Below are positions 18,731 through 41,896 of a stretch of 56,799 bases of DNA, piece by piece; positions within the stretch are counted from its first letter, which is position 1, and the number at the start of each line of letters is the position of its first letter. The notes beneath the pieces were generated by a model. It ran no database searches and was not told the origin of the DNA. It saw nothing but the letters and a program-made list of their open reading frames with translations. The position numbers and the translations under genes were made by a program. The DNA is from Candidatus Enterousia sp. (lineage in GTDB: Bacteria; Pseudomonadota; Alphaproteobacteria; Rs-D84): assembly GCA_045601765.1 (NCBI GenBank), contig JAZSAG010000006.1, positions 1 to 56,799 of the forward strand, given 5' to 3'.

Positions 18731-18745
18731 GACAGGGGAATAATT

Positions 18746-21049: not shown

Positions 21050-21054
21050 TCAAA

Positions 21055-21079
21055 GGCCGGCATTTGCCGGTCTTTTTTT
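21055..21079 (+). terminator. pheT terminator
   Basis: CCGGCA-tt-TGCCGG hairpin followed by a T-run. Confidence 0.7.
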
Positions 21080-21170
21080 ACTTTTTTTGCCCCCAGGATT
21101 TTTTGTATGGTTGACTTTTTTTTCAAGATTCTTAATAATATACCCATTGAAGTATACTAAGGGGAAAAAT

Positions 21171-21668: not shown

Positions 21669-21685
21669 CCCAAGGAAAATAGTAA

Positions 21686-22264
21686 ATGAAAAAAATAGAA
21701 AGTGTACAAGAATTTGTTGAAAAATTAGACGCCGCTAAAAAGGTAAATCCCAAAGATTTATCCAGTGACCAAGATTTAACAATTGCAATTATGAATTTAA
21801 TTTCAATCGAAGAACATTTAATGTTCTCGGGCGCCAAAACTGGCAAGCATGAATATTACGACCTGATAAACCAGGTCCGTGATATGCGCAAAAACGCAAT
21901 GTTAAAAATAATACCTGCGTACGAGGGCGAAGTTTGGTGTATATCAAAACATTTGCTGGCCGCGTCAATGCGTGTATTTGAAGTTGGGACCAAGGCCCTG
22001 GCGTCTGGTGACACACAAACAGCGTACGATTTATTTGATCAATCCTATGAATTATATTGCATGTTCTGGGGATTGAACATGGGTATTTTAAATGGTGAAA
22101 AAACAACAAAAACTGCGCCAAAAAAACAAGCAGATGTTGCAAAACCCGCCCAGACAAAAAATAAAGCGGTTGAAAATGTGTCTGCCCCTGTTATCAAAGA
22201 ACAAGGCGGCATGTCAAAACTGAAAAGTTGGGTAAAAAATGCGGTAAACTGCTGTATAGAATAG
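21686..22264 (+). CDS. Hypothetical protein (Lys/Ala-rich linker, C-terminal ...NCCIE)
   Basis: 192-aa ORF with an AAGGAAAA RBS, 17 bp after the preceding membrane-protein gene. No family recognised. Confidence 0.55.
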   Translation: MKKIESVQEFVEKLDAAKKVNPKDLSSDQDLTIAIMNLISIEEHLMFSGAKTGKHEYYDLINQVRDMRKNAMLKIIPAYEGEVWCISKHLLAASMRVFEVGTKALASGDTQTAYDLFDQSYELYCMFWGLNMGILNGEKTTKTAPKKQADVAKPAQTKNKAVENVSAPVIKEQGGMSKLKSWVKNAVNCCIE

Positions 22265-22274
22265 TTAAAAAAAA

Positions 22275-22296
22275 CTCCCAGTGTTGGGAGTTTTTT
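22275..22296 (+). terminator. Terminator
   Basis: CTCCCA-gtgt-TGGGAG hairpin followed by TTTTTT. Confidence 0.7.
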
Positions 22297-22330
22297 ATTG
22301 CCAAGTGAAATTAAAATTTTGTAAAAAAAA

Positions 22331-22354
22331 TCCCCCAAACGGGGGGATTTTTTA
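22331..22354. terminator. Bidirectional terminator
   Basis: TCCCCC-aaac-GGGGGA hairpin flanked by an A-run and a T-run. Abuts the stop of the minus-strand ligase gene. Confidence 0.7.
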
Positions 22355-23932
22355 TTCGTGTCTATCTGGGTATTTACCATCAATTAAATTCTGACGAATT
22401 ATGTGATGTTTAACCTTTTGTGTACTGGTCAATGGCAAATCTTCGGTTGTCATTGCATAGTGTGTAACCCATTTATAACTGGCTACTTTTTTGTTTGCTG
22501 CCGCAATTGCTTTGCCCAGTTTTTCCATTGTCATACCGTCTTCAACACTGAATACACCGTATGTCACAGTTTTATCTTTGACGACATGTTCAAACACAGC
22601 AACGTTTTTAACCCCAGGGATTGTTATATACATTGCCTCCAGTTCGTCTGGATAAACGTTTTTACCGCTGTCCAAAACAATAACTTGTTTTTTACGGCCT
22701 GCGAAATGTAATTCGCCGTTTTTATCCATAGACACCATATCGCCCGTATTAAAGAACCCGCGTTCATCAAACACTTCGGCATTAACCGCGTCATTATTCA
22801 GATATCCACCAAACACCTGATGACCACGCAACCACAGCACACCGACGCCGTCTTCGTTTTTATCACGAATTTCGCATTCGTTGTTCAGTGTTGGTCCACC
22901 GAACGCAAATGGTAAACGTTTTTTAGTAGGCTTTGAAATACAGATTGGTCCGACTGTTTCTGTCAGTCCATAACCCTGAATAAATGTCAACCCCAGACGT
23001 TCATAGAATGTTTCAACCTCTGGTTTTGTTGCGGCACCACCTGCAATCAGCAGACGTGCACGACCACCGAATACATCCAAGATTGGTTTTTGAACCTTGC
23101 GTACCAAGAATCCCAATCCTAATTTTTCCAACAGTTTTCCATATTTTAAAACAAAAGATACCAACCACCATTTCTTTTGTGCTTTGATATTATCAATAAT
23201 TTTATTACGGAAAACCTCCCACAGACGTGGTACTGCCGGAATAATTTGCGGACGGAATTTCTTAAAGTCCGCCATAATTTCTTTTGGATTAACGGTTGGT
23301 TGTAACAACACCCCGGCCCCATAATGTAATGTCGCCAGAATTTCCACTGCGAACCCAAACACATGATACATTGGCAAGAATCCATATAGGTAATCACCTG
23401 GTCTAATCCATTCGGCCATTGATTCCAAAGAATTCGTGCATTCCACGATATTAAAGTGTGTCAGTGGCACAACCTTGGGTACACCCGTAGACCCAGATGT
23501 AAATGACATTGTTGCGATATCCAAAGATTCCACATCTGCTGGTTTTAAATCTGGATTAATTTTACCGTCTTTTTTTGTTATTTCATAAAATTTAAATTTG
23601 CTTGTTTTATAAACAAAAGACTTTTCTGCGCATACCATTTTACATTTTGTAATAGATGCCATATTGTCGTATTCAAATGGGGTCAGATTTGTATCCAGTA
23701 ATAACACAGTCCCCCCCAGATACCAAATTGCAAACATTGTTATTGGAAATTCTGGGATATTGTGTGACAAGATACCAACAACATCACCTTTTTTTACGCC
23801 CTGTGCATCCAGTGATGCCGCACGTGCTTTTACCAAACCGATAAAGTCTTTGTATGTAACGTTCTCGCGCACCAGATATAAATTATCTGGATATGTTTGT
23901 GCGGTACGTTCCAGTAACTGATACATATTCAT
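22352..23932 (-). CDS. AMP-dependent synthetase/ligase (long-chain acyl-CoA ligase-like)
   Basis: AMP-binding signature MSFTSGSTGVPKVV, plus YGLTET and GDMVSMDKNGELHFAGRKK motifs. Confidence 0.85.
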   Translation of the reverse strand: MNMYQLLERTAQTYPDNLYLVRENVTYKDFIGLVKARAASLDAQGVKKGDVVGILSHNIPEFPITMFAIWYLGGTVLLLDTNLTPFEYDNMASITKCKMVCAEKSFVYKTSKFKFYEITKKDGKINPDLKPADVESLDIATMSFTSGSTGVPKVVPLTHFNIVECTNSLESMAEWIRPGDYLYGFLPMYHVFGFAVEILATLHYGAGVLLQPTVNPKEIMADFKKFRPQIIPAVPRLWEVFRNKIIDNIKAQKKWWLVSFVLKYGKLLEKLGLGFLVRKVQKPILDVFGGRARLLIAGGAATKPEVETFYERLGLTFIQGYGLTETVGPICISKPTKKRLPFAFGGPTLNNECEIRDKNEDGVGVLWLRGHQVFGGYLNNDAVNAEVFDERGFFNTGDMVSMDKNGELHFAGRKKQVIVLDSGKNVYPDELEAMYITIPGVKNVAVFEHVVKDKTVTYGVFSVEDGMTMEKLGKAIAAANKKVASYKWVTHYAMTTEDLPLTSTQKVKHHIIRQNLIDGKYPDRHE

Positions 23933-24002
23933 TATAAAAATTCCTTGTTGTTTTTATATTGGACTGTGGGTATTATACATAACAAACAACAGGAAATCAA
24001 AT

Positions 24003-24776
24003 ATGAAAATACTTACATTAAATATCAACTCTATACGTGCGCATGCGCAAAGTTTTATTGATTTATTACGTGGCGGCGAATACGACACAATTATGGTCCA
24101 AGAACTGAAAGTAGAAACCGCGAACTTTCCACACATGCTGTTTGATGAATTTGGTTATAATATAAAGGTGTTCGGTCAAAAAAGTTGGAATGGTGTTGCA
24201 ACATTTTCCAAACATTCTATCGAAGATGTAACATGTGGTCTGCCGACATATCCTGATGTAAACGCACGTTTTCTTGAATGTGTTGTTGCGGGACGCGTTC
24301 GTCTTATAAATGTATATATGCCAAATGGCGACCTGGTAACATCGCCAAAATTTCCATATAAATTGGAATGGATGAATGCATTTACACAATACATAGAACA
24401 ATATCTTGATTCCCCAGAACCTGTAATTATCGCCGGTGATTTTAATGTTGCCATACAAGACAGAGATATATGGAATCCAAAAAATTACGAAGGTGTCGCA
24501 ATATCTGCACCTGCGGCGCGTGATATAATGAATAAATGGTTGTCGGCTGGTTGGGTTGACGCATGGCGCACATTGCACCCAGATGACGTTGGTTATACAT
24601 GGTATGGTTATCGTGGGCGCGATACCGTTGGGAACAAGCAAGGCCTGCGTTTAGATTATTTCTTGTGCAATAAAACAGCGACGCGTATGATAAAAAATTG
24701 TGAAATAGATATGGAACCGCGACTGGCAGAAAAACCGACAGACCATTGTGGTTTGATGTTGTCGTTAAAAGATTAA
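24003..24776 (+). CDS. xthA: Exodeoxyribonuclease III
   Basis: MKILTLNINSIRAH... and an EEP-fold C-terminus ...PTDHCGLMLSL. 257 aa. Confidence 0.9.
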   Translation: MKILTLNINSIRAHAQSFIDLLRGGEYDTIMVQELKVETANFPHMLFDEFGYNIKVFGQKSWNGVATFSKHSIEDVTCGLPTYPDVNARFLECVVAGRVRLINVYMPNGDLVTSPKFPYKLEWMNAFTQYIEQYLDSPEPVIIAGDFNVAIQDRDIWNPKNYEGVAISAPAARDIMNKWLSAGWVDAWRTLHPDDVGYTWYGYRGRDTVGNKQGLRLDYFLCNKTATRMIKNCEIDMEPRLAEKPTDHCGLMLSLKD

Positions 24777-24779
24777 AAA

Positions 24780-24800
24780 ATCCCCAAACGGGGATTTTTA
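24780..24800. terminator. Bidirectional terminator
   Basis: ATCCCC-aaac-GGGGAT hairpin between convergent xthA and the adaptor gene. Confidence 0.7.
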
Positions 24801-24802
24801 CT

Positions 24803-26047
24803 TTATGGTCTGGGGCCACGCATTGGGTTCATATTGTTGCCTTTGTTTTCTGTCTTCATAGACCCCATACGTCCCGTCACAATTTTGTCCCCCAGTTTCA
24901 ATTCATCAGAAATAATTTCTGTTTCTGTGGCCGTCGCCAATCCCTTGGCGTATGGTACGAATACGACCTGGCCGTCACGTAACAACGCCAAATGTGTTGA
25001 TGGTGTTGCACCATTTGGATCATCAACAATGTTGCTGAAATTACGCACTAAAAATGCCGAGTTTGTAGTTTTCCAAACATTATTCTTTTCCGATATTATA
25101 ATCGTCACAAACGCGGTCATCCCCGGCATCAGTCGCAGTTCAGAATTATCAACATCAATCACCACAGTATACACAACAACATTTGACGTTGTTGTTGGTG
25201 ATAATCTTATTTGACGCACAATGCCTTCAAAGGTCTCGGACGGGTACGCATCAACAGTAAAAGAAACTTTTTGACCTTCTTTGATAACACCGATGTCCGC
25301 CTCTGACACAGATGTTTCAATTTGCATTTTTGTTAAATCTTCGGCAATTTCGAACAGGTCCGGCGTTTGGAAAGACGCGGCCACAGTTTGCCCGACATCA
25401 ACCTTGCGTGAGATAACCGTCCCATCCACAGGCGAAATAATTGTCGCATACCCCAGGTTTGTTAACGCGCGTTCATATTGTGATTGCATACGTTTAACAG
25501 ATTGTTCTGCCTGTTCATACGCGGTCTGTGATTGTTCCATTTCTGCGCGTGAAATAAATCCATCTGCATACAAAGATTTGTTTCTTTCATATTCAGATTT
25601 TGCATAATTGCGTTGTGATTCTGCACTGACCAGTGAAGCCTTGGACTCGTCAACAGATGCCTGTAATACGGATGGTTCTATTGTCAGCAAAACATCACCT
25701 TTTTTTACCTTGGAATTAAAGTCGACATATAAATTATCAATTGTCCCGGACACCTGAGACCCAACGTTTACAGTGTTCACAGGTTGTATTTCACCGGTTG
25801 CGCTGACAACATGTCTTAAATCACCGCGTGTAATATTTACGGTCGCATATTCTTGTTTTTTATCAACTGCGCCACCGAATATCAGTTTTATTGCCACCAA
25901 CGCCGCCGCAATTAATAATATCCACCATTTTTTGCGCCATATAAACTTCAAGAACCGCCATATCACAGATGGACGTTTAACCTTTGGCTCTACAGGTGCC
26001 TGTGGGGCAACAGGTTGTTTTTTTACGTTTTTATTCTTCTTTGCCAT
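24803..26047 (-). CDS. HlyD/MacA-family periplasmic adaptor subunit
   Basis: N-terminal anchor, coiled-coil hairpin region and beta-barrel/lipoyl-like segments. Overlaps the upstream TolC-family gene by 17 nt. Confidence 0.85.
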   Translation of the reverse strand: MAKKNKNVKKQPVAPQAPVEPKVKRPSVIWRFLKFIWRKKWWILLIAAALVAIKLIFGGAVDKKQEYATVNITRGDLRHVVSATGEIQPVNTVNVGSQVSGTIDNLYVDFNSKVKKGDVLLTIEPSVLQASVDESKASLVSAESQRNYAKSEYERNKSLYADGFISRAEMEQSQTAYEQAEQSVKRMQSQYERALTNLGYATIISPVDGTVISRKVDVGQTVAASFQTPDLFEIAEDLTKMQIETSVSEADIGVIKEGQKVSFTVDAYPSETFEGIVRQIRLSPTTTSNVVVYTVVIDVDNSELRLMPGMTAFVTIIISEKNNVWKTTNSAFLVRNFSNIVDDPNGATPSTHLALLRDGQVVFVPYAKGLATATETEIISDELKLGDKIVTGRMGSMKTENKGNNMNPMRGPRP

Positions 26048-27374
26048 TTTGTTCTTCCTGTTCTAGTTCTGCCTTGATTTCACCAACAGCCAGCGCCACA
26101 GCGGCCCGTTTAGTAAATAAATCATATTTTGCGGCATTGTTTTGTTTTTCTGCACTGACCAGTTCAGATTGCGCTGTTTGCCAATCCAGCATTGTTGCGC
26201 GTCCAACCTTGTACATACCGGCGGTTACTTTTTCGCTTTCAGTTGCAGATTTCAGTAATGTTTCGGTCTGTTTTAATACGGTCTGCGCAGTTTTATAGTT
26301 TTGATATGCTGTAAATATATCCAGTGACGCGTTATCTTGGGTTGCGCGTTCTTGTTCAACCGCGCGGTCGTAATTTGCCTGGGCGGCGCGCAGGTTATAC
26401 ATATTTGCAAATCCTGCAAACAATGGCATAGACGCACGTATTCCAATACTGCCACTGACATTATCGTAACCTGCATTAAATGCCTCGGACGGTGTGTCGT
26501 TCCACTGTAAAGACCCCGACGCAGAAATAGACGGCAGGTTACTTAAAAAAGTGCTGTTTCTGCGGTGCCATGCGGCATCTTTGTTTGCGGTTGCGCGTAA
26601 CAGGTCTGGTCTGGTTTTTTGTGCCTGTTCAAACAATTCATCCAAAGATTTTGTTTCTTGGGGTGTTCCAAATTCAGACGGCATATCTGCGATTTTAATA
26701 TCTTGGTCTGCCGGGAAAGACAGTTTATTTAATAATGCGCCCTTGGCAATTTCGCGATTGTTTTTTGCACGTTCCAGGTCTAAATCACGACTGGCCAATG
26801 TGGTATCTGCCTTTAACACGTCTGCGCGTGCCACAGATCCGGCCTTGAATTTTTTTTGTGCGGTATCACGTGCGGTTTGTGCAACTGTGCGCAACATTTC
26901 CGCAGATTCAACGTCTGCATCTGCGTTTAATAACGCATAATACGCACCGATTAAACCATAAATATAGTTTTGAACGGTTTCATCATAATCAAACCCGGCC
27001 GCCCGCCATGACGCCGCCGATTGATTTAAATCGGACAGTCTTTTGCCAAAATCAAATATTAAATAAGATGCGGACAAAGACGCCCCATACGACCAATCGC
27101 CCCAGTTTTCATTACGATACGGCAGTGACGCCGACCCAGATGCGCTTAGGCTGGGTAAATAATCGGCGTAACCGGCATTTTTAGAAAATCGTGCAGATTC
27201 ATATGCTAAAAAAGACGCAGTTGTTTGTGGGTTACGACACAGCCCCAGTTCGATTACCTGGGGTAAATTAAGTACTTCATCTGGTACACTTGTACGTGTT
27301 ACGCATTCTTCATACGCGCCAAACGCCATACATGGCACCAATACCCCCAGTAAAAAAGACAGTTTTTTCATCAA
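26031..27374 (-). CDS. tolC: TolC-family outer membrane efflux protein
   Basis: Signal peptide and a two-fold repeated alpha/beta TolC architecture. 447 aa. Confidence 0.85.
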   Translation of the reverse strand: MMKKLSFLLGVLVPCMAFGAYEECVTRTSVPDEVLNLPQVIELGLCRNPQTTASFLAYESARFSKNAGYADYLPSLSASGSASLPYRNENWGDWSYGASLSASYLIFDFGKRLSDLNQSAASWRAAGFDYDETVQNYIYGLIGAYYALLNADADVESAEMLRTVAQTARDTAQKKFKAGSVARADVLKADTTLASRDLDLERAKNNREIAKGALLNKLSFPADQDIKIADMPSEFGTPQETKSLDELFEQAQKTRPDLLRATANKDAAWHRRNSTFLSNLPSISASGSLQWNDTPSEAFNAGYDNVSGSIGIRASMPLFAGFANMYNLRAAQANYDRAVEQERATQDNASLDIFTAYQNYKTAQTVLKQTETLLKSATESEKVTAGMYKVGRATMLDWQTAQSELVSAEKQNNAAKYDLFTKRAAVALAVGEIKAELEQEEQNGKEE

Positions 27375-27462
27375 AAGTTCTCTCTCGTAATATTTCTTTT
27401 ATTATATACTATTTTTATCTTGAAATACAATTTTTTTTTGCGTAATATAGTCCTGCTGTTTG

Positions 27463-27536
27463 GGCCTGGTGGCAGAGTGGTTATGCAGAGGACTGCAAAT
27501 CCTTCTATGCCGGTTCGATTCCGACTCAGGCCTCCA
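27463..27536 (+). tRNA. tRNA-Cys (GCA)
   Basis: Hand-folded cloverleaf: acceptor GGCCTGG/TCAGGCC (one G-U pair), anticodon loop CTGCAAA, T-arm GCCGG-TTCGATT-CCGAC, encoded CCA. Confidence 0.9.
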
Positions 27537-27579
27537 AAATAAAAAACCGTCCCTTGTGGACGTTTTTTATTTTGAAATC
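27518..27579 (+). repeat. Direct repeat copy 1 (tRNA-Cys 3' end plus terminator)
   Basis: 62 bp, repeated at 27718-27779 with a single mismatch (T at 27526 versus C at 27726). Confidence 0.9.
27548..27568 (+). terminator. tRNA-Cys terminator (copy 1)
   Basis: CGTCC-cttgt-GGACG hairpin followed by TTTTTT. Confidence 0.7.
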
Positions 27580-27717
27580 ATGATGTGGAGAACCGGCGCC
27601 GGTTCGCATGCGCGCAAAGGTTTGCAAGTGGCGTGTGATATTTTGCCACGCAGCAAACCACTGCAAGCAGTGAATCAAGTTGCGTTTAGCAACGGTCGCC
27701 CAACGGGCGATGTGAAC
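27580..27717. other. 138-bp GC-rich, hairpin-rich insert between the two repeat copies (integration scar, miniature element or sRNA)
   Basis: Composition contrasts with the flanks. Contains the 16-bp palindrome GAACCGGCGCCGGTTC and hairpins GCAAA/TTTGC, GTGGC/GCCAC and TCGCCC/GGGCGA. Confidence 0.4.
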
Positions 27718-27779
27718 ATTCCGACCCAGGCCTCCAAAATAAAAAACCGTCCCTTGTGGACGTTTTTTATTTTGAAATC
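27718..27779 (+). repeat. Direct repeat copy 2 (displaced tRNA-Cys 3' end plus second terminator copy)
   Basis: Identical to copy 1 except that C at 27726 would make a Watson-Crick pair with the tRNA acceptor 5' strand. Confidence 0.9.
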
Positions 27780-27800
27780 TATGTGTTCTGTGTGTATGAT
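27772..27800 (+). promoter_or_regulatory. Candidate sigma70 promoter for recF, with its -35 inside repeat copy 2
   Basis: TTGAAA, 17 bp spacer, TATGAT. The -10 ends 7 nt before the ATG at 27808, implying a near-leaderless mRNA. Confidence 0.35.
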
Positions 27801-27807
27801 AGCAATC

Positions 27808-28887
27808 ATGATAAGTGCTATATCTTTAACAGATTTCAGAAACCACAGTATGTGTCGCATAACAACACAGGGTCGCAATAATATTATAATTACTGGACCA
27901 AATGGCGCCGGCAAGACCGCAATCCTAGAGGCAATATCAATGCTGTCTGGCGATCGTGGCATGCGTGGTGCACAAATGTCAGATATTGCACGTTTTGATG
28001 GTGACGGTGGTTTTGGTGTTTTTGCCGCATTATCTGACGCATCAGAATTATCTGTTGTGTTTCAATCTGGCGACACAAACAGACGTGCGAAAATCGATGG
28101 TGACACGGCCCCCCTGGCAGATTTGTCAAAACATTTGCACATTGTATGGCTGACCCCAAAAGAAGACAGACTGTTCATAGACAGTGCATCTGACAGGCGT
28201 TCTTTTTTTGACCGCCTGGCAACATGTTTTGATACATCGCATATTGGGCGCGGTGCCAAGTTGTCAAAATTACTTAGTGAACGCGCCTATGCGTTAAAAT
28301 CAGGTGCCGACCCACATTGGCTAAATGCGCTGGATGCACAGATTGCGGGTGTTGCCGTGACGGTTGCGGCATCACGAATCCAGTATTGTGGTGAATTGAA
28401 TTATTTCTTGTCTGATTGCGCGGTATCTGTTTCTGGAAAAATAGAACAAATGTTAATAGACGGAATGACGGCGGGTGACGCCGAAAGGTCTTATTTAGAT
28501 TATTTGCAAGAAAACAGAATCTTGGTTGGCGATAAAATGGTACTTGATGGGCCACATAAATCTGATTTTGGTGTGTTTAATAAAAAACTGGGGCTGCCCG
28601 CACATTTGACCAGTACCGGCCAACAAAAGTCAGTTTTAATTGATTTAATATTGGCACATACAAAATTGGTCTTTACAAAAACAGGTCGTACATCTATCGT
28701 TTTATTAGACGAGGCTGCCGCCCACCTGGACGACAAAGCGTGCACCCAATTATTCAGGCAATTACACAATTTAAATGCCCAGGTCTGGGCCACAGGTTTG
28801 GATACAGAAAAATTCCAAGATGTACCAAACGCATTATTTGTTGCTTGCCATAATGGGCAAATAAGTAATATAGTATACGGGGAGTAA
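27808..28887 (+). CDS. recF: DNA replication and repair protein RecF
   Basis: MISAISLTDFRNH...ITGPNGAGKTAILEAI (Walker A) and a C-terminal ...VLLDEAAAHLD (Walker B). The track ORF from 27460 runs through tRNA-Cys and two terminators. ATGs at 27781 and 27796 are alternatives. Confidence 0.85.
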   Translation: MISAISLTDFRNHSMCRITTQGRNNIIITGPNGAGKTAILEAISMLSGDRGMRGAQMSDIARFDGDGGFGVFAALSDASELSVVFQSGDTNRRAKIDGDTAPLADLSKHLHIVWLTPKEDRLFIDSASDRRSFFDRLATCFDTSHIGRGAKLSKLLSERAYALKSGADPHWLNALDAQIAGVAVTVAASRIQYCGELNYFLSDCAVSVSGKIEQMLIDGMTAGDAERSYLDYLQENRILVGDKMVLDGPHKSDFGVFNKKLGLPAHLTSTGQQKSVLIDLILAHTKLVFTKTGRTSIVLLDEAAAHLDDKACTQLFRQLHNLNAQVWATGLDTEKFQDVPNALFVACHNGQISNIVYGE

Positions 28888-28893
28888 AAAAAC

Positions 28894-29358
28894 ATGGCAC
28901 GTATAGATTATCAAACTTTACTAGACAATGCGTTAAAGTCCGTTGTCAAAGATGCATTAATTCATGCCCAGTTTAATGGTCTGGGTGATGGTACACACTT
29001 TTTTATCACGTTTCGCACACGTGACAGCGGTGTTGTTTTGCCGGATTTCCTGCGCATACGCTATCCAGATATTATGACAATAGTATTGCAATATTCATAT
29101 AATAATTTACATGTATCTGACAAAGAATTCGGTGTTCAATTGACATTTGATGGTCGTCCATATTTTATACGTGTGCCGTTTTCTGCGCTGGTTGAATTCA
29201 AAGACCCATCTGTTGATTTTATGTTGTCTTTTCAGCCCAAGCCCCAACAGCAATCTGCGGACAACGACATGGAATTACCATTGGATGAAAAGCCAGGCAC
29301 CGTCCCAGACCCCGACCGTGTTGTGTCATTGGATGAATTCAGAAAAAGAAAACAATAA
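28894..29358 (+). CDS. sspB: ClpXP adaptor SspB (alpha-proteobacterial type)
   Basis: SspB-like N-terminal fold region (THFFITFRT...), a disordered acidic linker, and a C-terminal ...VVSLDEFRKRKQ resembling a ClpX-binding tail. Confidence 0.7.
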   Translation: MARIDYQTLLDNALKSVVKDALIHAQFNGLGDGTHFFITFRTRDSGVVLPDFLRIRYPDIMTIVLQYSYNNLHVSDKEFGVQLTFDGRPYFIRVPFSALVEFKDPSVDFMLSFQPKPQQQSADNDMELPLDEKPGTVPDPDRVVSLDEFRKRKQ

Positions 29359-29360
29359 AA

Positions 29361-29387
29361 AATTCCCATTTCGGGAATTTTTTTATT
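29361..29387 (+). terminator. sspB terminator
   Basis: AATTCCC-atttc-GGGAATT hairpin followed by a T-run. Confidence 0.7.
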
Positions 29388-29390
29388 TTC

Positions 29391-29427
29391 TGGTGCCCCA
29401 AAGCCAAAACTTAACGGACTACAAAGC
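29391..29427 (-). pseudogene. Degenerate copy of the tRNA-Thr(GGT) 3' end
   Basis: Plus strand tggtgcccc..cggact versus the tRNA plus strand tggtgccct..cggact. About 22 of 30 positions align, with small indels. Confidence 0.4.
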
Positions 29428-29504
29428 AACTGTTGAAGATTATATAGCCCTTTTATCCGAATGGCAAAAATTTTGTGAAGAAATTATCAGAACAGGAACA
29501 ATCA

Positions 29505-29744
29505 TCAAAAATATTTTTTCTGAAAAATTCTGCCATTACCAGTCTTAAGAAACTTTTCAAAAATTTGTGCTTTTTCCTCACTGTCAAAAGCAATATATCC
29601 ACGCAAATCCCAAGGTTTAAATTTATTTGTATGAACAGAATTACCGTTATTATGTTCTTTTAAGCGTCTTTTTAAATCATTAGTGCAACCAACATAAAAA
29701 TGTTCTGGAAAATTTATACTTTGTAGAATATACACATAAAACAT
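29505..29744 (-). CDS. Small GIY-YIG nuclease-family protein (YhbQ/UPF0213-like)
   Basis: MFYVYILQS...FYVGCTNDLKRRLKEHN carries the GIY..YVG and R/E motifs. Start set at 29744; the longer ORF start (29774) lies inside a structured RNA. Confidence 0.8.
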   Translation of the reverse strand: MFYVYILQSINFPEHFYVGCTNDLKRRLKEHNNGNSVHTNKFKPWDLRGYIAFDSEEKAQIFEKFLKTGNGRIFQKKYF

Positions 29745-29750
29745 CAGAAG

Positions 29751-29859
29751 TCCGCTTTCATTCACTACGTTCATTACAGCGTGACATCCGTTTCTCTAAC
29801 TCTACACCTTCGTTTGCTTTCTGCGAAACCAATCTCGCTGTAGCGTAAGCGAAAGCGGA
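29751..29859 (-). ncRNA. 109-nt strongly structured element directly between the tRNA-Thr 3' CCA and the GIY-YIG start
   Basis: Nested helices on the minus-strand RNA: P1 UCCGCUUUC/GAAAGCGGA (9 bp), P2 UUACG/CGUAG (5 bp), P3 UACAGCG/CGCUGUA (7 bp), and hairpin GUUU(C)GC-agaaa-GCAAAC. GC-richer than the flanks. Confidence 0.5.
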
Positions 29860-29933
29860 TGGTGCCCTAAGCAAGAATCGGACTTGCGACTCGTCCTTAC
29901 CAAGGACGTGTTTTACCACTAGACTATTAGGGC
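29860..29933 (-). tRNA. tRNA-Thr (GGT) with non-canonical features
   Basis: Acceptor GCCCTAA/TTAGGGC, anticodon arm CGTCC-TTGGTAA-GGACG, encoded CCA. Unusual points: T-loop TCCGATT (C at position 55) and a C-A mismatch in the D-stem. Confidence 0.7.
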
Positions 29934-29990
29934 AATTTAGATAACGCAGTTGATTATACGGATGGCTAAACAAAAATCAAGAATATTTTA

Positions 29991-30017
29991 TTGAAAATAG
30001 ATTTTATCTGGTATAAA
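29991..30017 (+). promoter_or_regulatory. Candidate promoter of the aspS leader
   Basis: TTGAAA, 15 bp spacer, TATAAA with an extended -10 TGG. Confidence 0.45.
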
Positions 30018-30023
30018 ATCAGT

Positions 30024-30203
30024 CTCAGTTGCAAATATGATACGCGTTGATGTGACTGACAACCACGGAGTGTTCATATCGCATAAAAAGTTATAAATCA
30101 GGGTGGCACCGCGCAAATAACATATCTGCGCCCCTGAAATTTAACAAACAATGGGTGCCGAAAATCCAAATTTTTCTGCGCCTGAAAACAAAAAGGGACC
30201 AAA
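30024..30203 (+). promoter_or_regulatory. T-box riboswitch-like leader of aspS (antiterminator core 30099-30136)
   Basis: CAGGG-[UGGCACC]-GCGCA-loop-UGCGC-CCCUG, i.e. the conserved GGGUGGNACCGCG T-box with its 7-nt UGGNACC bulge. N=C matches discriminator G73 of tRNA-Asp. GAC codons at 30054 and 30058. Confidence 0.65.
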
Positions 30204-31958
30204 ATGTTATCTTTGAAATCAAAGTACAGAACACACACATGTGGTGAATTAAATCCCACAAATGTTGGCGAAACAGTAATCTTGTCTGGTTGGGTTCATC
30301 GTAAACGTGACCATGGGGCATTATTGTTCGTAGACCTGCGTGACAATTATGGTATCACCCAGGTTGTTTTTGATGGTGGTGATGAAAACTTGGAAAAAGT
30401 TCGCCCAGAATCAGTTATAAAAATCACAGGCACCGTTGTTGCGCGTGATGCATCTGCGGTTAATGAAAAAATACCAACTGGCGGAATTGAAATTCAGGCG
30501 ACTTCTTTTGAAGTTTTAACTAATTCAGACGTTTTGCCATTTCAGGTTTTTGGCGATGATGAATCTGTTGCCGAAGATTTAAGATTAAAACACAGATATA
30601 TTGACCTGCGTCGTGAATCATTGCATAAAAATATTTTAATGCGCAATCGCATTGTAAAGTTTATGCGTGATAAAATGTGGGATATGGGATTTTCAGAATT
30701 CCAAACACCTATCTTAACCGCGTCCAGTCCCGAAGGTGCACGTGACTTTATCGTCCCGTCTCGTAATCATCATGGTATGTTTTATGCCCTGCCCCAGGCA
30801 CCACAACAGTTTAAACAATTGTTACAGGTATCGGGCTTTGACAGATATTTCCAAATTGCACCATGTTTTCGTGACGAAGACCTGCGTGCCGACAGATTGT
30901 TAGAATTTTATCAACTGGACCTAGAAATGTCATTTGTTGATTTATTGGATATCCAGGCCGTTGGTGATGAATTGATGCCGGCTTTGATACGTGAATTTGT
31001 CCCAGATGCAATATTATCTGATGAAATACCGCATATTTCATTTGACGATGCGATGTTGAAATATGGGTCTGATAAACCAGATTTGCGTAATCCAATAATT
31101 ATCCACGATGTCACAGAAGTTTTCCGCGGGTCTGATTTTGGTATATTTGCCAACGCCATTGAAAATGGCAGTGTTGTTCGTGCCATACCTGCACCAAACA
31201 GTGCGGATAAACCACGTTCATGGTTTGATAAACTGGGCGACTTTGCCGTCAAAGAACTGGGGCTGGGTGGATTGGGATACATTGTATTCGCAGACGAACC
31301 CAAGGGCCCTGTTGCGAAAAAGTTAGATGCCGCGCGCATTGAAAAATTGCATGCGATTGCGGGTGATAACGCATCTTTGTTCTTTGTTTGTGACGCGCCG
31401 GAATCTGCGGCCAAGGCCGCGGGTAAAATCCGCAATAAATTGGGCGAAGATTTAGGTTTAATCAATCCACGCGAATTCCGTCTGTGTTGGATAGAAGACT
31501 TTCCAATGTATGAATTGAACGAAGAAACAGGTGCGATTGATTTTGGTCATAATCCATTCAGTTTACCCAAGGGCGAATTAGATGGTGATCCATTGAAAAT
31601 CAAAGCAAACCAGTTTGACATGGTGTTAAATGGCGCAGAAATTTGCAGTGGTGGCCTGCGTAATTATAACCCTGAAATCATGGTCAAGGCATTTGCAATC
31701 GCTGGATACGGCGAAGATGTTGTCAAGGCCAAGTTTGGTGGTATGTATACCGCGTTCCAATATGGCGCCCCACCACACGGTGGTTGTGCATTTGGTATTG
31801 ATAGATTGGTTCAAATTATCCTGGGCGAACAAAATCTGCGTGGTGTTGTTGCGTTCCCGACCAATCAACGTGGCCAAGACCTGATGTTGGGTGCACCGAC
31901 AAATGTCACAGAACAGCAATTACGTGATGTGCATATCCAGGTCAGAAAAAAGAACTAA
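30204..31958 (+). CDS. aspS: Aspartate--tRNA ligase
   Basis: 584 aa, bacterial type: OB-fold N-terminus, ...FYALPQAPQQFKQLL..., FRDEDLRADR, and a GAD insertion. Confidence 0.97.
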   Translation: MLSLKSKYRTHTCGELNPTNVGETVILSGWVHRKRDHGALLFVDLRDNYGITQVVFDGGDENLEKVRPESVIKITGTVVARDASAVNEKIPTGGIEIQATSFEVLTNSDVLPFQVFGDDESVAEDLRLKHRYIDLRRESLHKNILMRNRIVKFMRDKMWDMGFSEFQTPILTASSPEGARDFIVPSRNHHGMFYALPQAPQQFKQLLQVSGFDRYFQIAPCFRDEDLRADRLLEFYQLDLEMSFVDLLDIQAVGDELMPALIREFVPDAILSDEIPHISFDDAMLKYGSDKPDLRNPIIIHDVTEVFRGSDFGIFANAIENGSVVRAIPAPNSADKPRSWFDKLGDFAVKELGLGGLGYIVFADEPKGPVAKKLDAARIEKLHAIAGDNASLFFVCDAPESAAKAAGKIRNKLGEDLGLINPREFRLCWIEDFPMYELNEETGAIDFGHNPFSLPKGELDGDPLKIKANQFDMVLNGAEICSGGLRNYNPEIMVKAFAIAGYGEDVVKAKFGGMYTAFQYGAPPHGGCAFGIDRLVQIILGEQNLRGVVAFPTNQRGQDLMLGAPTNVTEQQLRDVHIQVRKKN

Positions 31959-31962
31959 AAAA

Positions 31963-31986
31963 AACCGGCATTTGCCGGTTTTTTTA
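31963..31986. terminator. Bidirectional terminator
   Basis: AACCGGCA-tt-TGCCGGTT hairpin followed by a T-run. Abuts the stop of the convergent small ORF. Confidence 0.7.
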
Positions 31987-32253
31987 TTTTTTATTTTGTA
32001 TCTGTGCGGACATAAGGTTTGTTAAATTTAAATCTTTGATACGCATATCGATTGCGTGTTGAACTTTTATTTGTTCTTCGAACAGCAACTGATATTGTGC
32101 GCCGTTTTCATTTGCAACATATGATACAGATTTTCCTTTTTGGTCGCGATTAACAATCGCCACACCTTGATTAGAATAGATATAATAATCGCCGAACGAT
32201 GGTTTTATATAGTGTGCATTTTGGATAATATTTAAAAGTTGTTGAATTGTCAT
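31984..32253 (-). CDS. Hypothetical small protein
   Basis: 89-aa ORF, 13 bp downstream of the preceding small ORF. No family recognised. Confidence 0.45.
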   Translation of the reverse strand: MTIQQLLNIIQNAHYIKPSFGDYYIYSNQGVAIVNRDQKGKSVSYVANENGAQYQLLFEEQIKVQHAIDMRIKDLNLTNLMSAQIQNKK

Positions 32254-32266
32254 TTTTTATCCTTTA

Positions 32267-32617
32267 TTACTTAATATTTTCTTTAAATTTATTCAAAAAA
32301 GACTGCATCTGTTGATCTTTTGAATCTTTAAGTACCTGTGAATCTCTGTTTTTGAACAGTTTATACATGTCTTCTGCAAATACTTTATCTGAAAAATCGT
32401 ATTTTACCTGTCCTTTGTTCATAGATATTTTCAGTGAATCCACCGCTTGTCCAAAACCAAGTGTCTTGAACGTAAAAGTTATTTTACCATCAATAACCCA
32501 TATTTGTTCATCTGTACCCTGTCCCAATGGGTTGACTTTATTAGACACTAAAACCTTTTTATCTTTAAGTTTTTGTTCTGTCAGGGTTAAAATGTCGTTT
32601 TGCATTATTATATTCAT
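32267..32617 (-). CDS. Hypothetical small protein
   Basis: 116-aa ORF with several possible ATG starts (M1/M5). No family recognised. Confidence 0.45.
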   Translation of the reverse strand: MNIIMQNDILTLTEQKLKDKKVLVSNKVNPLGQGTDEQIWVIDGKITFTFKTLGFGQAVDSLKISMNKGQVKYDFSDKVFAEDMYKLFKNRDSQVLKDSKDQQMQSFLNKFKENIK

Positions 32618-32723
32618 ACTTTGTATCCTTTATTCCTGGTAAGAAAGTACCATATAAAACACATTTGTCAAATTATTAATACTGTGCTTGATTTTTATGA
32701 TTTTACATTGTAAACTAACTGGC

Positions 32724-32756
32724 ATGAAACAGAAAGCAATAATTATCATTAAATAA
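32724..32756 (+). CDS. Candidate ileS leader peptide MKQKAIIIIK (four consecutive Ile codons)
   Basis: ATG AAA CAG AAA GCA ATA ATT ATC ATT AAA TAA read directly from the sequence. The stop lies 26 nt before the attenuator hairpin. No obvious SD, which lowers confidence. Confidence 0.5.
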   Translation: MKQKAIIIIK

Positions 32757-32782
32757 AAGGCGACTGCGCTTTGGCGGTGGCT

Positions 32783-32805
32783 GGGGCGCGTGGGCGCCTT
32801 TTTTT
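32783..32805 (+). terminator. Attenuator terminator 21 bp upstream of the ileS ATG
   Basis: GGCGC-gugg-GCGCC hairpin followed by seven U. Its 5' arm (32783-32790) can alternatively pair with UGCGCUUU (32765-32772). Confidence 0.65.
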
Positions 32806-32826
32806 AATGCAATATGGAGTTTTATT

Positions 32827-35800
32827 ATGACATACCCAAAGACAGATGCACGCCCAGATTTTCCTGCCCTGGAACAGGTTGTTTTGGCATCGTGGAATAA
32901 AAACGATACTTTTCACAAATCGTTACAGCAAACAAAACATGGCGAACCATTTTTATTTTACGATGGTCCTCCTTTTGCCAATGGTCTGCCCCATTGGGGA
33001 CATTTGGGTGTGACTGTTGTCAAAGATATGATTTCACGCTTTCAGACAATGAATGGTCGTTATGTAAGGCGCGAATTGGGCTGGGATTGTCATGGGTTGC
33101 CTGCGGAAAATTCTGTTGAAAAAAAACAGGGTAAACGTGCCAAAGATATTGTCGCAGATGATGGTATTGCCGCGTTTTGTGATATGTGCAGAACGGACGT
33201 TATGACATATACAAACGAATGGAACAGTTTTATATCACGTATGGGTCGTTGGGTTGATATTGGTGATAATTATGGTTACAGAACCATGGATAAAAATTAT
33301 ATGGAATCTATGCTGTGGACATTGAAATCATTGTATGAACGTGGCTTGTTGTACAAAGATTACAGTGTAAATCCATACGATTGGGTAAATGGCACCGTTG
33401 TTTCAAATTCCGAAGCGTCCCAAGACTATCGTGAAATTGTTGATGATGCGGTAACGGTTTGGTTTGAATTGGAAAATGGCGACCGGGCAATTGCATGGAC
33501 AACAACGCCATGGACATTACCTGCGAATTCTGCATTGGCGGTGAATCCAAATATGACGTATCTGCGCATGCAAGACACGGATGGCAGTGTTTATGTCATC
33601 GCATCCAGCAGACTGGCGGCATACGAAAAACAATTTGCCAATGCAACAGAAATAGGTCGTGTTAATGGTGCAGATTTGGTTGGTATGCATTATGTGCCAC
33701 TGTTCCCATATTATGCAGGTACATCTGAATTATTATTCCAGGTTATACCTGCGGATTATGTGTCTGACACTGACGGTACGGGTATTGTCCATATTGCGCC
33801 GGCATACGGTGCCGAAGATTTCTGGGCGGCGAAAAATATTGATGCGAAATTCCCAGTGTTATTGAATGTTGATACATACGGTAATTTTGATAACAGTGTG
33901 ACAGATTTTGCGGGCGAAAATATATTTGACGCCACACCAAAAATATTGGATTGGTTAAAGGCAAATGGACGCTTGGTTAAAAAAGAACAATATAAACACA
34001 GTTATCCATTTGGTGACCGCAGTAAACAAAAACTGATACAGCGTGCAACAGATTCTTGGTATATCGATGTTCCAAAAATCAAAGACAAATTACTGGCGAA
34101 TAATGCCTTGGTAAATTGGACATCTGCGGGCGAGCGTTTTCGCAGTTGGATTGAAAATGCGCGTCCTTGGTCAATATCACGTAATCGTTTCTGGGGTATG
34201 CCACTGCCAATTTGGGAACGTGACGGCGAATACAAGGTATTTGGTTCAATCGCAGAATTAGAAGAATTCTTTGGCGTGCCTGTTAATGACTTGCACCGTC
34301 CAACATTGGATAAATTATCGCGCGATGGTTGGACCCGTATCCCAGATGTATTAGATTGCTGGGTGGAAAGTGGTTCTATGCCATGGGCGTCATTACATTA
34401 TCCGTTTGAAAATGTAGACACATTTGAAAAATCTTTTCCTGCCGATTATATTATCGAAGGTCAAGATCAAACACGTGGTTGGTTTTATGCACTGATGGTA
34501 TTGGCAACAGCGTTATTTGATAAACCTGCGTTTAAAACGGTGTCTGCAAATGGTATGGTGGTTGATGAAAATAAAAAGAAGTTTTCAAAATCGCTAAGAA
34601 ACTTTGTCGACCCATCTGACCAAATAGAACAATATGGCGCAGATTCAATTCGCCTGTTTATATTGGGGTCTAATTTTATGAAGGCAGAACCGGTTCCTGT
34701 TGATAAAGAAGGTAAAGTATTCCTTGATTCTGCCAAGGTGATTTTAACCCCATTGTGGATGGCGTATCACTTCTTTACACTGTACGCGAATCCTGCAAAT
34801 ATCACCGCCCAGCATGTTGAAACATCTGACAATGCGCTGGATAAATATATATTGTCCGAATTAAATGTGTTAACAGATGTTGTCTGCACGTCTTTGAACG
34901 AATATAAACCAGACGTTGCCATCAAAGAATTTGTTCGATTCTTGGATATTTTGAACAACTGGTACATACGTCGCAGTCGTACACGTTTCTGGGACGAAGA
35001 ACAATGCGCGTTTGATGTGCTGTACACAGTGTTAACAACATTGTGTCGTGTGTTGGCACCATTTGCACCATTTGTATCAGATTATATTTACACAAATCTG
35101 ACGGGGGCAGAATCTGTGCATTTAACAACATTTCCTGTGGCGTCAGACATTGATACGAAAATCGTAGAAGATATGCGCCGCGTACAGTCAATTGTATCTG
35201 TTGGTAATCAATTGCGTGAGCAATATAAATTACGTAATCGTCTGCCGTTAAATTCGGTAACAATTGCCGGCGCCGACATGCCAGAATACGCCAATATCAT
35301 CAAAGAAGAATTAAATGTAAAACACGTAAAGTTTGATAACAATATATCAAATGTTGCGGACAGTTTTGTATATCTGATTACACCAAAAATAGGTGGCCGT
35401 TTGGGCGGTGCATTAAAAGACATAATACCATCTGTTAAACGTGGTGATTATGAAATTGTTGGTGATAAATTACATACTGCGGGATATATATTAAATTCTG
35501 ATGAATTTGAACAAAGATTAACTGTGCGTCGTGATGTCTCTGGTGCGGCGTTGCCTGATAATACTGCGGTTGTGGTACTAGATACAGACGTTAACGCAGA
35601 ATTGATTGCCGAAGGTCTGGCAAACGATGCGTTGCGCTTTATCCAAGATACCCGCAAGACAGCAGGCCTGGACGTTTCGGACAGAATAATTTTGACATAT
35701 TCTGCGGACCCTGCATTGGCGATTGCAATTGAACAGCATAAAAAGCGTATTATGCGTGATGCATTGATTGTTGAAATGCGCGCTGGGGACGGCCAATATA

Positions 35801-35850
35801 AAAAAGATATTCTGGGATATGACTTATCAATTGATGTGACCAAGGCATAA
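32827..35850 (+). CDS. ileS: Isoleucine--tRNA ligase, type 2 (eukaryote-like)
   Basis: 1007 aa with PPFANGLPHWGHL (HIGH region, type-2 style) and KKFSKS (KMSKS). Confidence 0.95.
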   Translation: MTYPKTDARPDFPALEQVVLASWNKNDTFHKSLQQTKHGEPFLFYDGPPFANGLPHWGHLGVTVVKDMISRFQTMNGRYVRRELGWDCHGLPAENSVEKKQGKRAKDIVADDGIAAFCDMCRTDVMTYTNEWNSFISRMGRWVDIGDNYGYRTMDKNYMESMLWTLKSLYERGLLYKDYSVNPYDWVNGTVVSNSEASQDYREIVDDAVTVWFELENGDRAIAWTTTPWTLPANSALAVNPNMTYLRMQDTDGSVYVIASSRLAAYEKQFANATEIGRVNGADLVGMHYVPLFPYYAGTSELLFQVIPADYVSDTDGTGIVHIAPAYGAEDFWAAKNIDAKFPVLLNVDTYGNFDNSVTDFAGENIFDATPKILDWLKANGRLVKKEQYKHSYPFGDRSKQKLIQRATDSWYIDVPKIKDKLLANNALVNWTSAGERFRSWIENARPWSISRNRFWGMPLPIWERDGEYKVFGSIAELEEFFGVPVNDLHRPTLDKLSRDGWTRIPDVLDCWVESGSMPWASLHYPFENVDTFEKSFPADYIIEGQDQTRGWFYALMVLATALFDKPAFKTVSANGMVVDENKKKFSKSLRNFVDPSDQIEQYGADSIRLFILGSNFMKAEPVPVDKEGKVFLDSAKVILTPLWMAYHFFTLYANPANITAQHVETSDNALDKYILSELNVLTDVVCTSLNEYKPDVAIKEFVRFLDILNNWYIRRSRTRFWDEEQCAFDVLYTVLTTLCRVLAPFAPFVSDYIYTNLTGAESVHLTTFPVASDIDTKIVEDMRRVQSIVSVGNQLREQYKLRNRLPLNSVTIAGADMPEYANIIKEELNVKHVKFDNNISNVADSFVYLITPKIGGRLGGALKDIIPSVKRGDYEIVGDKLHTAGYILNSDEFEQRLTVRRDVSGAALPDNTAVVVLDTDVNAELIAEGLANDALRFIQDTRKTAGLDVSDRIILTYSADPALAIAIEQHKKRIMRDALIVEMRAGDGQYKKDILGYDLSIDVTKA

Positions 35851-41652: not shown

Positions 41653-41660
41653 AAAAGAAA

Positions 41661-41682: not shown

Positions 41683-41687
41683 AACTA

Positions 41688-41851: not shown

Positions 41852-41896
41852 CAACCTGCTTTGGTTTCTGGACATAGCGCCCCAGGCAAACTTTTT

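Follow-up and report, generated by a model that had tools for sequence, protein, structure and literature searches.

T-boxes are a model for how one RNA reads another, and more than 95% of those found in surveys lie in Firmicutes; the proteobacterial examples in these surveys are limited to deltaproteobacterial leuA leaders (Geobacter, Pelobacter), present in 2 of 125 proteobacterial genomes (PMC2494555). Here, we describe a T-box-type leader in front of aspS, the gene for aspartate--tRNA ligase (AspRS), in a 56.8-kb stretch of DNA (the window) whose source is Candidatus Enterousia (Alphaproteobacteria, order Rs-D84). Members of Enterousia have genomes smaller than 1 Mb and no amino-acid biosynthesis (PMC12306168). 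Comparison with related loci indicates a T-box that is real, conserved, and drastically shortened, spanning about 105 nucleotides (nt) from Stem I to the antiterminator, and we put the probability that the leader functions as a T-box-type tRNA sensor at about 0.9. Whereas the deltaproteobacterial leuA T-boxes are described as typical and precede a biosynthetic gene, the aspS leader is reduced, precedes a synthetase gene, and belongs to the Alphaproteobacteria, for which we found no T-box report in the literature searched, the coverage of which was incomplete.

In design, the leader comes closest to the translational ileS T-boxes of Actinobacteria (class II, ultrashort Stem I; M. tuberculosis and Nocardia farcinica). 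They share with the aspS leader a kink-turn (K-turn) and a very short Stem I without an elbow platform (PMC7583486, PMC10651847), as well as the order A1-bulge-A2, the lack of an intrinsic terminator, and a synthetase gene with a matching specifier; control of translation initiation is presumed both there and here. The aspS leader differs in its alphaproteobacterial host and its Asp/Asn specifier, and the differences extend to the architecture: the ileS leaders need a Stem II S-turn with IIA/B for the codon-anticodon helix and Stem III for the tRNA 3' end, which is impossible in the aspS leader, and their sequestrator is the 3' strand of the antiterminator itself, whereas here a separate hairpin lies in between, one arm of which complements the T-box bulge. 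The transcriptional glyQS T-boxes of Bacillus and Geobacillus, like the aspS leader, lack Stem II and IIA/B and have Stem I joined by a linker to the discriminator; unlike it, they have a long Stem I with an elbow platform, Stem III, a G.U pair in A2, and a U-tract terminator, all four of which are absent here. With the canonical Firmicutes T-box of Rfam family RF00230 the aspS leader has in common the GGGUGGNACCGCG core, the 7-nt bulge, helices A1 and A2, the GA/K-turn, and a specifier followed by a purine, but it scores 33.5 rather than 93 bits, with 61 Stem I positions deleted and no convincing match to Stems II and III. An Asn T-box with a two-codon variant, at the Clostridium acetobutylicum genes for tRNA-dependent amidation, is said to have been described by Saad et al. 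in 2012 and 2013; it would be a precedent for tRNA-Asn control of the Asp-tRNA-Asn/Asn pathway, but it is reportedly long, canonical, transcriptional, and from a Firmicute, whereas in the aspS leaders one and the same loop position shows the Asp codon in some species and the Asn codon in others.

By these criteria the aspS leader belongs neither to the canonical transcriptional class nor to the actinobacterial translational class. It is a candidate minimal T-box with a noncanonical output, and it may be the smallest natural T-box seen, with an unusual output stage; the T-box interpretation had been proposed from the letters of the window alone and is supported here with refinements. TBDB takes its class I entries from Rfam-threshold matches and searched its class II model in Actinobacteria alone (PMC7778990), a scope by which elements like the aspS leader would be missed. 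Curated thresholds, such as the 93 bits of Rfam, and phylum-limited searches, such as that for TBDB class II, overlook forms of this kind. The leader extends the range of T-boxes to the Alphaproteobacteria, and there to an obligately dependent gut lineage with a genome smaller than 1 Mb; since regulators are usually lost in such reduced genomes, tight control of AspRS seems to be important in this lineage.

Antiterminator core and reduced Stem I

A search with AspRS, restricted to one genome per GTDB species, gave 80 loci with an AspRS that is 76 to 97% identical. All are from Candidatus Enterousia or from uncultured alphaproteobacterial metagenome-assembled genomes of animal guts, which agrees with the original prediction, where the host had been called apparently proteobacterial. 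The leader alignment (alignment A1) holds 75 distinct leaders, and leader counts are otherwise out of 79; a covariance model, R1, was built from Stem I and the antiterminator (alignment A2). The gene and the parts of the leader that concern tRNA recognition are as follows.

30204 to 31958 (+): aspS, the gene under regulation, encoding a bacterial-type aspartate--tRNA ligase of 584 amino acids (NCBIfam NF001750, 740 bits)
30035 to 30079 (+): reduced Stem I, made of a C-stem (30035 to 30045 with 30070 to 30079), a K-turn, a 3-bp stem, and a terminal loop (RNAalifold, covariation)
30046 to 30051 (+): bulged strand of the K-turn, with the 3-nt bulge GUU (30046 to 30048), G30049, A30050, and U30051 (sequence pattern)
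30055 to 30063 (+): 9-nt terminal loop ACUGACAAC, with the specifier GAC at 30058 to 30060 and the purine A30061 (loop alignment)
30085 to 30098 (+): purine-rich linker AAAAAG-UUAU-AAAU, directly 5' of helix A1 (column frequencies)
30099 to 30136 (+): antiterminator or antisequestrator, helices A1 and A2 with a 7-nt bulge (Rfam alignment, RNAalifold, covariation)

The fold that had been claimed for 30099 to 30136 is correct in both its letters and its pairing. Helix A1 joins CAGGG (30099 to 30103) to CCCUG (30132 to 30136), and helix A2 joins GCGCA (30111 to 30115) to UGCGC (30127 to 30131) and closes an 11-nt loop; the bulge between them, UGGCACC (30104 to 30110), is 7 nt long and has UGGC free for a tRNA 3' GCCA. 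The T-box sequence GGGTGGCACCGCG has one copy in the window, and the 13-mer GGGTGGNACCGCG is likewise unique there. RF00230, the family by which the original prediction could be checked, matches 29967 to 30138 at 33.5 bits; the match is significant, with an E value of 5.8e-6 in a permissive scan of 29900 to 30260 (361 nt) and of 2.6e-4 in a 16-kb scan, yet it falls under the gathering score of 93. Almost all of the score comes from the antiterminator, and in one relative (L021) the family matches the core alone, at 24.1 bits. At the curated Rfam thresholds, the whole window gave four tRNAs and no T-box.

The element is kept in 79 of the 80 aspS leaders, where TGGCACC stands about 100 nt 5' of the aspS ATG, L074 being the sole exception. 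Model R1 scores the window at 104 bits and 78 further full leaders at 73 to 106 bits, one leader being truncated by a contig end, and among the 570 kb made up by the window and the 80 loci it has no matches beyond the aspS leaders. Its four helices form standard pairs in 97.2% of alignment cells, and in 134 cells both sides have changed; these values were not equaled in any of 500 column shuffles, and register shifts of 1 to 3 columns lowered the pairing to 33 to 58%. Pairing is complete (100%) in helices A1 and A2, and the two outer pairs of A1 show compensatory changes. In the bulge, the variable base of UGGN is C in 79 of 79 leaders; bacterial tRNA-Asp and tRNA-Asn both carry G73. As to the exception, L074 (AspRS 76% identical) has AT-rich sequence before aspS and no T-box core; L078, which is as distant as L074, has the element, suggesting loss in one lineage.

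Stem I had been expected to be very short, and this was borne out: a Stem I bearing the specifier can be modeled, and it covaries. RNAalifold recovers both the C-stem and the NC stem, the former 90% paired with three pairs changed on both sides and the latter, of 3 bp, 100% paired in alternative forms (GUG:CAC in 45 leaders, GCG:CGC in 14, AUG:CAU in 11, and ACG:CGU in 4). The pattern between them is that of a K-turn, with sheared G.A/A.G pairs predicted from G30049 and A30050 opposite G30068 and A30069; the GA of the 5' strand is invariant and that of the 3' strand is present in 78 of the 79 leaders. Position 3b.3n (U30051 and G30067) is non-Watson-Crick and variable (UG in 59 leaders, CC in 13, CU and AA in 2 each, and AU, CA, and AG in 1 each), which fits the expectation for a K-turn. 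These sequence and covariation patterns point to a K-turn at the base of Stem I, its position in nearly all T-boxes (PMC7583486).

The Rfam score, far under the curated 93 bits, and a 19-codon open reading frame (ORF) in the window that runs from ATG 30038 to TAA 30095 and reads through GAC-AAC could be taken to mean that the locus holds no T-box, and that the leader is a chance likeness, an AspRS-binding operator, or a leader-peptide attenuator carrying GAC or AAC. This is very improbable given that 79 species-level genomes retain the core, the K-turn, and the specifier and that each of the four helices shows compensatory changes; moreover, the loop displays a codon and not an anticodon, so that it does not mimic tRNA-Asp. 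Leader-peptide attenuation was rejected on two further grounds: the start of the small ORF (ATG 30038) is absent in relatives and not conserved, and the would-be codon at 30052, GTG in the window, is replaced by GCG, ACG, or ATG together with a matching change in the bases it pairs with, a sign of RNA structure and not of coding.

Several observations weigh against a functional T-box. Between Stem I and helix A1 there are about 19 nt (30080 to 30098) with no conserved helix, which leaves no room for Stem II with its S-turn, for the IIA/B pseudoknot, or for a Stem III hairpin. In known T-boxes, Stem III is needed for the tRNA 3' end and the forms with a short Stem I need Stem II (PMC7583486, PMC10651847), and the absence of both parts counts against the element for that reason. 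The leader has none of the parts of a long Stem I, be it the internal Specifier Loop (S-turn), the AG bulge, or the distal loop of the elbow platform. The terminal pair of A2, G30111-C30131, is G-C in 75 of 75 distinct leaders, in place of the G.U wobble of the Rfam consensus that serves as a steric sensor of the aminoacyl group (PMC7583486). The core had been called canonical, which it is not fully, as it has lost both the G.U pair and the Stem III hairpin. Finally, neither the window nor the related loci contain genes for tRNA-Asp or tRNA-Asn.

The linker at 30085 to 30098 is conserved as AAARG-UNAN-AAR-N, with A30088 and A30095 invariant and A30093 and A30096 at 96% or more. In known T-boxes, a purine string of the form RRRxG-[Stem III]-AA flanks Stem III (PMC7583486); the linker resembles such a string in which the Stem III hairpin would have shrunk to about 4 nt, a length that cannot form a hairpin. 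Both sites for pairing with tRNA are retained in the element, as are the K-turn and the purine string. A conserved element without Stem II or Stem III would test the structural rules drawn up for T-boxes, and its length of about 105 nt would offer a compact start for structural work and for engineered tRNA sensors.

Alternation of Asp and Asn specifiers

Loop positions 4 to 6 are GAC (Asp) in 62 leaders and AAC (Asn) in 17, with no third codon, and position 7 is a purine in all 79 (A in 70, G in 9). A purine directly after the specifier is a rule of T-boxes. In the window, as had been noted, GAC stands at both 30054 and 30058, the second followed by A; the comparison of leaders supports the second (30058 to 30060 with A30061), which had been the preferred specifier, while the first (30054 to 30056) spans the border between stem and loop and varies to GCC, GAU, and GUC in relatives. 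On a neighbor-joining tree of the AspRS proteins, the first codon position changed between G and A at least seven times independently.

Since the specifiers are exactly Asp or Asn and both tRNAs carry G73, either tRNA could report on the enzyme. An AAC specifier suits aspS only if AspRS also charges tRNA-Asn, and the simplest reading of the repeated switches, as far as codons can tell, implies a nondiscriminating AspRS together with GatCAB, which the switches thereby predict for these bacteria. Such a pair is the usual arrangement in bacteria that lack AsnRS (PMC4206432). Within the window, asnS and gatCAB were looked for and not found. The enzyme itself gives two weak leads: its closest solved structure is 4wj3, the Asp/Asn nondiscriminating enzyme of P. 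aeruginosa, though all bacterial AspRS score alike, and it has His in the motif RKRDHGA, at a position that reportedly carries His in nondiscriminating bacterial AspRS and Leu in the discriminating type. The possibility that aspS was acquired from Firmicutes was also considered and dropped, as the PDB comparison was uninformative and the homolog search gave close relatives only.

Hairpin H2 and the output of the switch

Four features between the antiterminator and the start codon bear on the output.

30153 to 30183 (+): hairpin H2, GGGUGC:GCGCCU with a C.U mismatch, GAAAA:UUUUC, and the loop UCCAAAU (folding, RNAalifold)
30154 to 30160 (+): strand 3, GGUGCCG, 5' arm of H2 (complementarity to the bulge)
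30176 to 30184 (+): strand 4, CUGCGCCUG, 3' arm of H2, a candidate anti-Shine-Dalgarno sequence (class match to the Shine-Dalgarno sequence)
30194 to 30198 (+): Shine-Dalgarno (SD) sequence AGGGA, 5 nt 5' of the ATG at 30204 (AAGG core conserved in the alignment)

The lack of a U-tract terminator, pointed out in the original prediction, extends from the window to the 79 leaders. No terminator-like site and no T-rich tract were found in the leader of the window, and no run of five or more U follows H2 in any of the 79; H2 is instead followed by an A-rich tract, the 10 nt 3' of it containing a mean of 7.0 A and 1.2 U. This absence, together with a conserved hairpin ahead of the SD, is in line with the suggestion that the switch might be translational or otherwise noncanonical. 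Folding predicts H2 in all leaders, with energies of -6.6 to -17.9 kcal/mol (the lower scores of three leaders are due solely to a separate inserted hairpin within the folded segment), and RNAalifold recovered it from an independent alignment, in which both its base and its distal helix show compensatory changes. The "degenerate second unit" that had been seen at 30153 to 30185 is thus a conserved unit, and in this the observation was sound, but it is a hairpin and not a second T-box.

The two arms of H2 are not conserved alike. In the 5' arm, GGUG is invariant, the following C's are conserved at 99 and 93%, and the base after GGUGCC is a purine in 73 of 75 leaders; the 3' arm is much less well conserved, and one of the two conserved C's is normally unpaired within H2. 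The 5' arm, strand 3 (GGUGCCR), and the 7-nt bulge UGGCACC are exact reverse complements over the same extent: the complementarity is 7 of 7 in 77 of the 79 leaders and 6 of 7 in the remaining 2, pairing holds in 99.6% of cells, and each of the 24 one-sided changes is compatible with wobble pairing. The GCCR within strand 3 resembles a tRNA 3' end with G73. In duplex energy, the bulge (-11.5 kcal/mol) surpasses strand 4 (-8.0 kcal/mol) as a partner of strand 3, and it is the better partner in 69 of the 79 leaders.

On these grounds we tentatively propose, with somewhat less than even odds, a translational relay in which uncharged tRNA displaces strand 3 from the bulge. Without uncharged tRNA, the GGUGCCR arm would act as an internal pseudo-acceptor end and fill the bulge of the T-box; this would keep H2 from closing, and the C-rich 3' arm of H2, thus freed, would pair with the SD region and lower translation. 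An uncharged tRNA, anchored by codon-anticodon pairing, would take the bulge with its GCCA end and stabilize the antiterminator, and the displaced arm would close H2 and free the SD. Synthesis of AspRS would in this way rise as tRNA-Asp becomes uncharged, and likewise with tRNA-Asn in the AAC lineages, where such a relay would imply a nondiscriminating AspRS. If true, occlusion of the bulge would be a new route by which a T-box is coupled to gene expression.

The last step of this proposal is supported by strand 4, which changes by class together with the bases 3' of the GG in the SD: ACACC, GCACC, or GCGCC occurs with GGUGU, UCGCC with GGCGA, GUCCC or GU(G)CCC with GGGAC, CACCU with AGGUG, and UGCUC with GGGCA. 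The mean duplex of strand 4 with the SD is -6.3 kcal/mol within a leader, -5.2 when arms are swapped between leaders, and -4.4 when they are shuffled at constant composition; none of 5,000 permutations matched the own-leader mean, in a test that ignores phylogeny. With the change of state that the relay assumes, the predicted accessibility of the SD goes from 0.37 to 0.29 overall, and by class from 0.49 to 0.24 (GGUGU) and from 0.46 to 0.18 (GGCGA).

Other results speak against the relay. Four leaders have an SD without a complement in strand 4, and in the GGGAC class (43 leaders, including the window) the pairing comprises just 3 to 5 bp; in the window it amounts to -3.3 kcal/mol, from CCU:AGG alone. 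Accessibility is almost flat in this class (0.35 to 0.31) and in the window (0.26 to 0.21), and support for the relay is therefore weakest for the window's own SD class. The invariant bulge gives no two-sided covariation with strand 3. A search of JGI metagenomes for the same K-turn-hairpin geometry with a bulge base other than C (UGGA, UGGG, or UGGU) found none, a weak absence given the strict pattern: of 10 pattern matches, 9 were chance occurrences in GC-rich coding DNA and 1 was a canonical long valS T-box (L084). Within the limits of that pattern, the architecture is known for aspS with UGGC alone. In the nearest-neighbor model, moreover, the antiterminator with H2 is the minimum-energy fold even without tRNA, so that a stable OFF state is an assumption of the relay, and the energies for pairing of the bulge with the arm cover the nested form.

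When folds were forced, the mean energies were -30.9 kcal/mol for the antiterminator with H2, -28.3 for the bulge paired with the arm (nested form), and -24.9 for GCGCCC (30128 to 30133) paired with GGGUGC (30153 to 30158). The first two lie 2.6 kcal/mol apart, and the modeled energies support two near-balanced states; the third fold is 6.0 kcal/mol less stable than the first and 3.4 less stable than the second. That third pairing is the alternative raised in the original prediction; as a mechanism, it would be a remnant of a terminator helix that forms without tRNA, opens H2, and lets the 3' arm mask the SD. It follows canonical T-box logic, in that the 3' strand of the antiterminator is shared with a competing helix, and five of its six pairs are invariant, with 94.7% of cells paired; its outer pair, though, is broken in 23 of 75 leaders without covariation (G30153 is naturally U in 18 leaders), and it leaves the conserved CC-R of GGUGCCR unused. 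The pairing is possible, as had been stated, but in view of its energy and its broken outer pair it is less well supported than that of GGUGCC with the bulge, and we consider it an improbable basis for the switch.

Direct masking of the SD by the antiterminator 3' strand, as in the actinobacterial ileS leaders (PMC7583486), is about equally improbable. In such a classical translational T-box, GCGCCCCUG (30128 to 30136) would pair with the SD when tRNA is absent or charged, H2 would be a passive spacer hairpin, and the complementarity of its arm to the bulge would be incidental. For 11 leaders, with SDs of the GGGUGU, GGGGUC, and GGGGCA types, this strand is indeed the best complement of the SD (-9.7 to -11.9 kcal/mol), whereas in the window the match is CCCU:AGGG alone (4 bp), far weaker than the antiterminator, and leaving the T-box 5' strand free costs about 10 kcal/mol in the modeled folds. 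Such a mechanism would explain neither the invariance of GGUGCCR nor the conserved mismatch in H2 nor the match of strand 4 to the SD.

It is also conceivable, although unlikely, that tRNA binding is real and that the output is something other than masking of the SD, namely mRNA processing or stability, Rho-dependent termination, or a largely constitutive leader; RNases might reach the A/U-rich linkers or a long alternative helix, and H2 would be structural or protective. The predicted ground state (antiterminator with H2) and the SD accessibility of the window's class, which hardly moves, fit this view, as do at least 12 relatives in which the leader starts about 15 nt or less from a same-strand tRNA-Thr gene, which would involve RNA processing in its biogenesis. 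A precedent is the reported RNase III cleavage of a T-box leader in Staphylococcus aureus (PMC7913692). No positive sign of cleavage and no rut site were seen in the aspS leaders, however; the linkers are C-poor, and strand 4 and the SD covary by class.

The relay proposal in its most complete form combines all of these parts into the smallest natural T-box: a K-turn hairpin and a bare antiterminator, auto-inhibited by the tRNA 3'-end mimic GGUGCCR and connected by a hairpin relay to the ribosome-binding site, without Stem II, the Stem III hairpin, or the G.U sensor, and with a specifier that flips freely between Asp and Asn by virtue of a nondiscriminating AspRS. That every part of this picture holds at once is rather doubtful.

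Several other pairings were considered and rejected. The helix GUUA (30090 to 30093) with UAAC (30143 to 30146), which encloses the antiterminator in the minimum-energy fold of the window, pairs in 70.6% of cells and fails in whole clades. Simple nested "sequestrator" folds lie about 6 to 10 kcal/mol above that of the antiterminator. The antiterminator loop pairs strongly with the linker that follows in one clade alone (AAUCUUA:UAAGAUU), at -5 to -8 kcal/mol; in the window, where the value is +0.5 kcal/mol, the pairing is absent. In that clade (L010, L011, L014 to L016, L022, L029 to L031, L033, L036, L037, L048, L049, L052, L057, L060, L065, and L069), a helix of 7 to 8 bp would place the 3' strand of the antiterminator within a hairpin loop, an arrangement compatible with the fold in which the bulge pairs with the arm; a weaker form, AAAUAUC:GAUGUUU, occurs in L070, L071, L073, and L079.

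Around the start codon, the minimum-energy fold of the window pairs the SD region AAAGGGAC (30191 to 30198) with GUU-A-UCUUU (30206 to 30214). The start codon then lies within a small hairpin (30191 to 30214), which persists in all of the constrained states and may be a by-product of the conserved Met-Leu-Ser-Leu coding start. Between H2 and the SD, palindromic inserts of about 35 to 60 nt occur in L019 and L047 (TCCCCCTTCGCC...GGCTTCGGGGGA) and, as a shorter and different insert, in L020 and L033 (TCCCAC...GTGGGA); they look like small mobile or repetitive hairpins, the insertion of which the leader tolerates at this place.

Neighborhood of the leader

Upstream from Stem I the window has one candidate promoter, identified by its consensus match alone (10 of 12 positions).

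29991 to 30019 (+): promoter-like site, with -35 TTGAAA (29991 to 29996), a 17-nt spacer, and -10 TAAAAT (30014 to 30019) (consensus scan)

The predicted transcript start is at about 30026. In most relatives, a tRNA-Thr(GGU) gene stands beside the leader on the strand of aspS and in many of them occupies the place of the promoter-like site. In at least 12 loci (including L006, L010, L016, L017, L030, L039, L041, L042, L051, L053, L055, and L078) the tRNA gene ends about 8 to 15 nt 5' of Stem I, which leaves no room for a promoter, so that the leader is probably cotranscribed with the tRNA, from which tRNA 3' processing would free it. In the window (29860 to 29933, -) and in its closest relative, L001, the tRNA-Thr gene is inverted, and in this layout promoter-like sites face both ways (29991 to 30019, +; 29980 to 29953, -). 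At least 10 relatives (L005, L008, L009, L018, L021 at about 2183 to 2322, L023, L031, L035, L050, and L061) carry a conserved noncoding element of about 130 nt (...CACAATACGCARYATCTAAYACATTTSTGKCGCCCNACGGGCAC...ATCATCTGTTTTGCG...) between the tRNA-Thr gene and the leader of aspS; the element is absent from the window, has no Rfam match in L021, and could be a small RNA or a repeat.

The window contains three other synthetase genes, pheS (17783 to 18730), pheT (18746 to 21049), and ileS (32827 to 35850). No T-box was found in front of any of them with R1, the core pattern, or the permissive Rfam scan of 16900 to 33000, and in this region of the genome the T-box seems to be reserved for aspS. 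The valS T-box that turned up in the metagenome search, L084 3327 to 3670 (-), is from a GC-rich organism and of the canonical long type, with an Rfam score of 72.6 bits, a GUC-type specifier region, and a U-tract terminator.

Elsewhere in the window, the mechanically called recF ORF (27460 to 28887, +) has a TTG start inside a tRNA-Cys gene (27463 to 27536, +); the RecF match begins at residue 118, which places the true start of recF about 350 nt further 3'. A VirB4-family type IV secretion ATPase and the type I restriction-modification genes hsdM and hsdR are encoded among 3815 to 6244 (-), 41056 to 45811, and 45930 to 52660 (+). Several long ORFs near these genes have no NCBIfam match (E<=1e-25), two of them also no Pfam match, and this DNA may be mobile or related to defense within a reduced genome. 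Clusters of sub-threshold matches to Rfam leader families, on both strands, coincide with gene ends at 22240 to 22414 and at 31875 to 32037, just after aspS; these are most likely bidirectional terminator hairpins.

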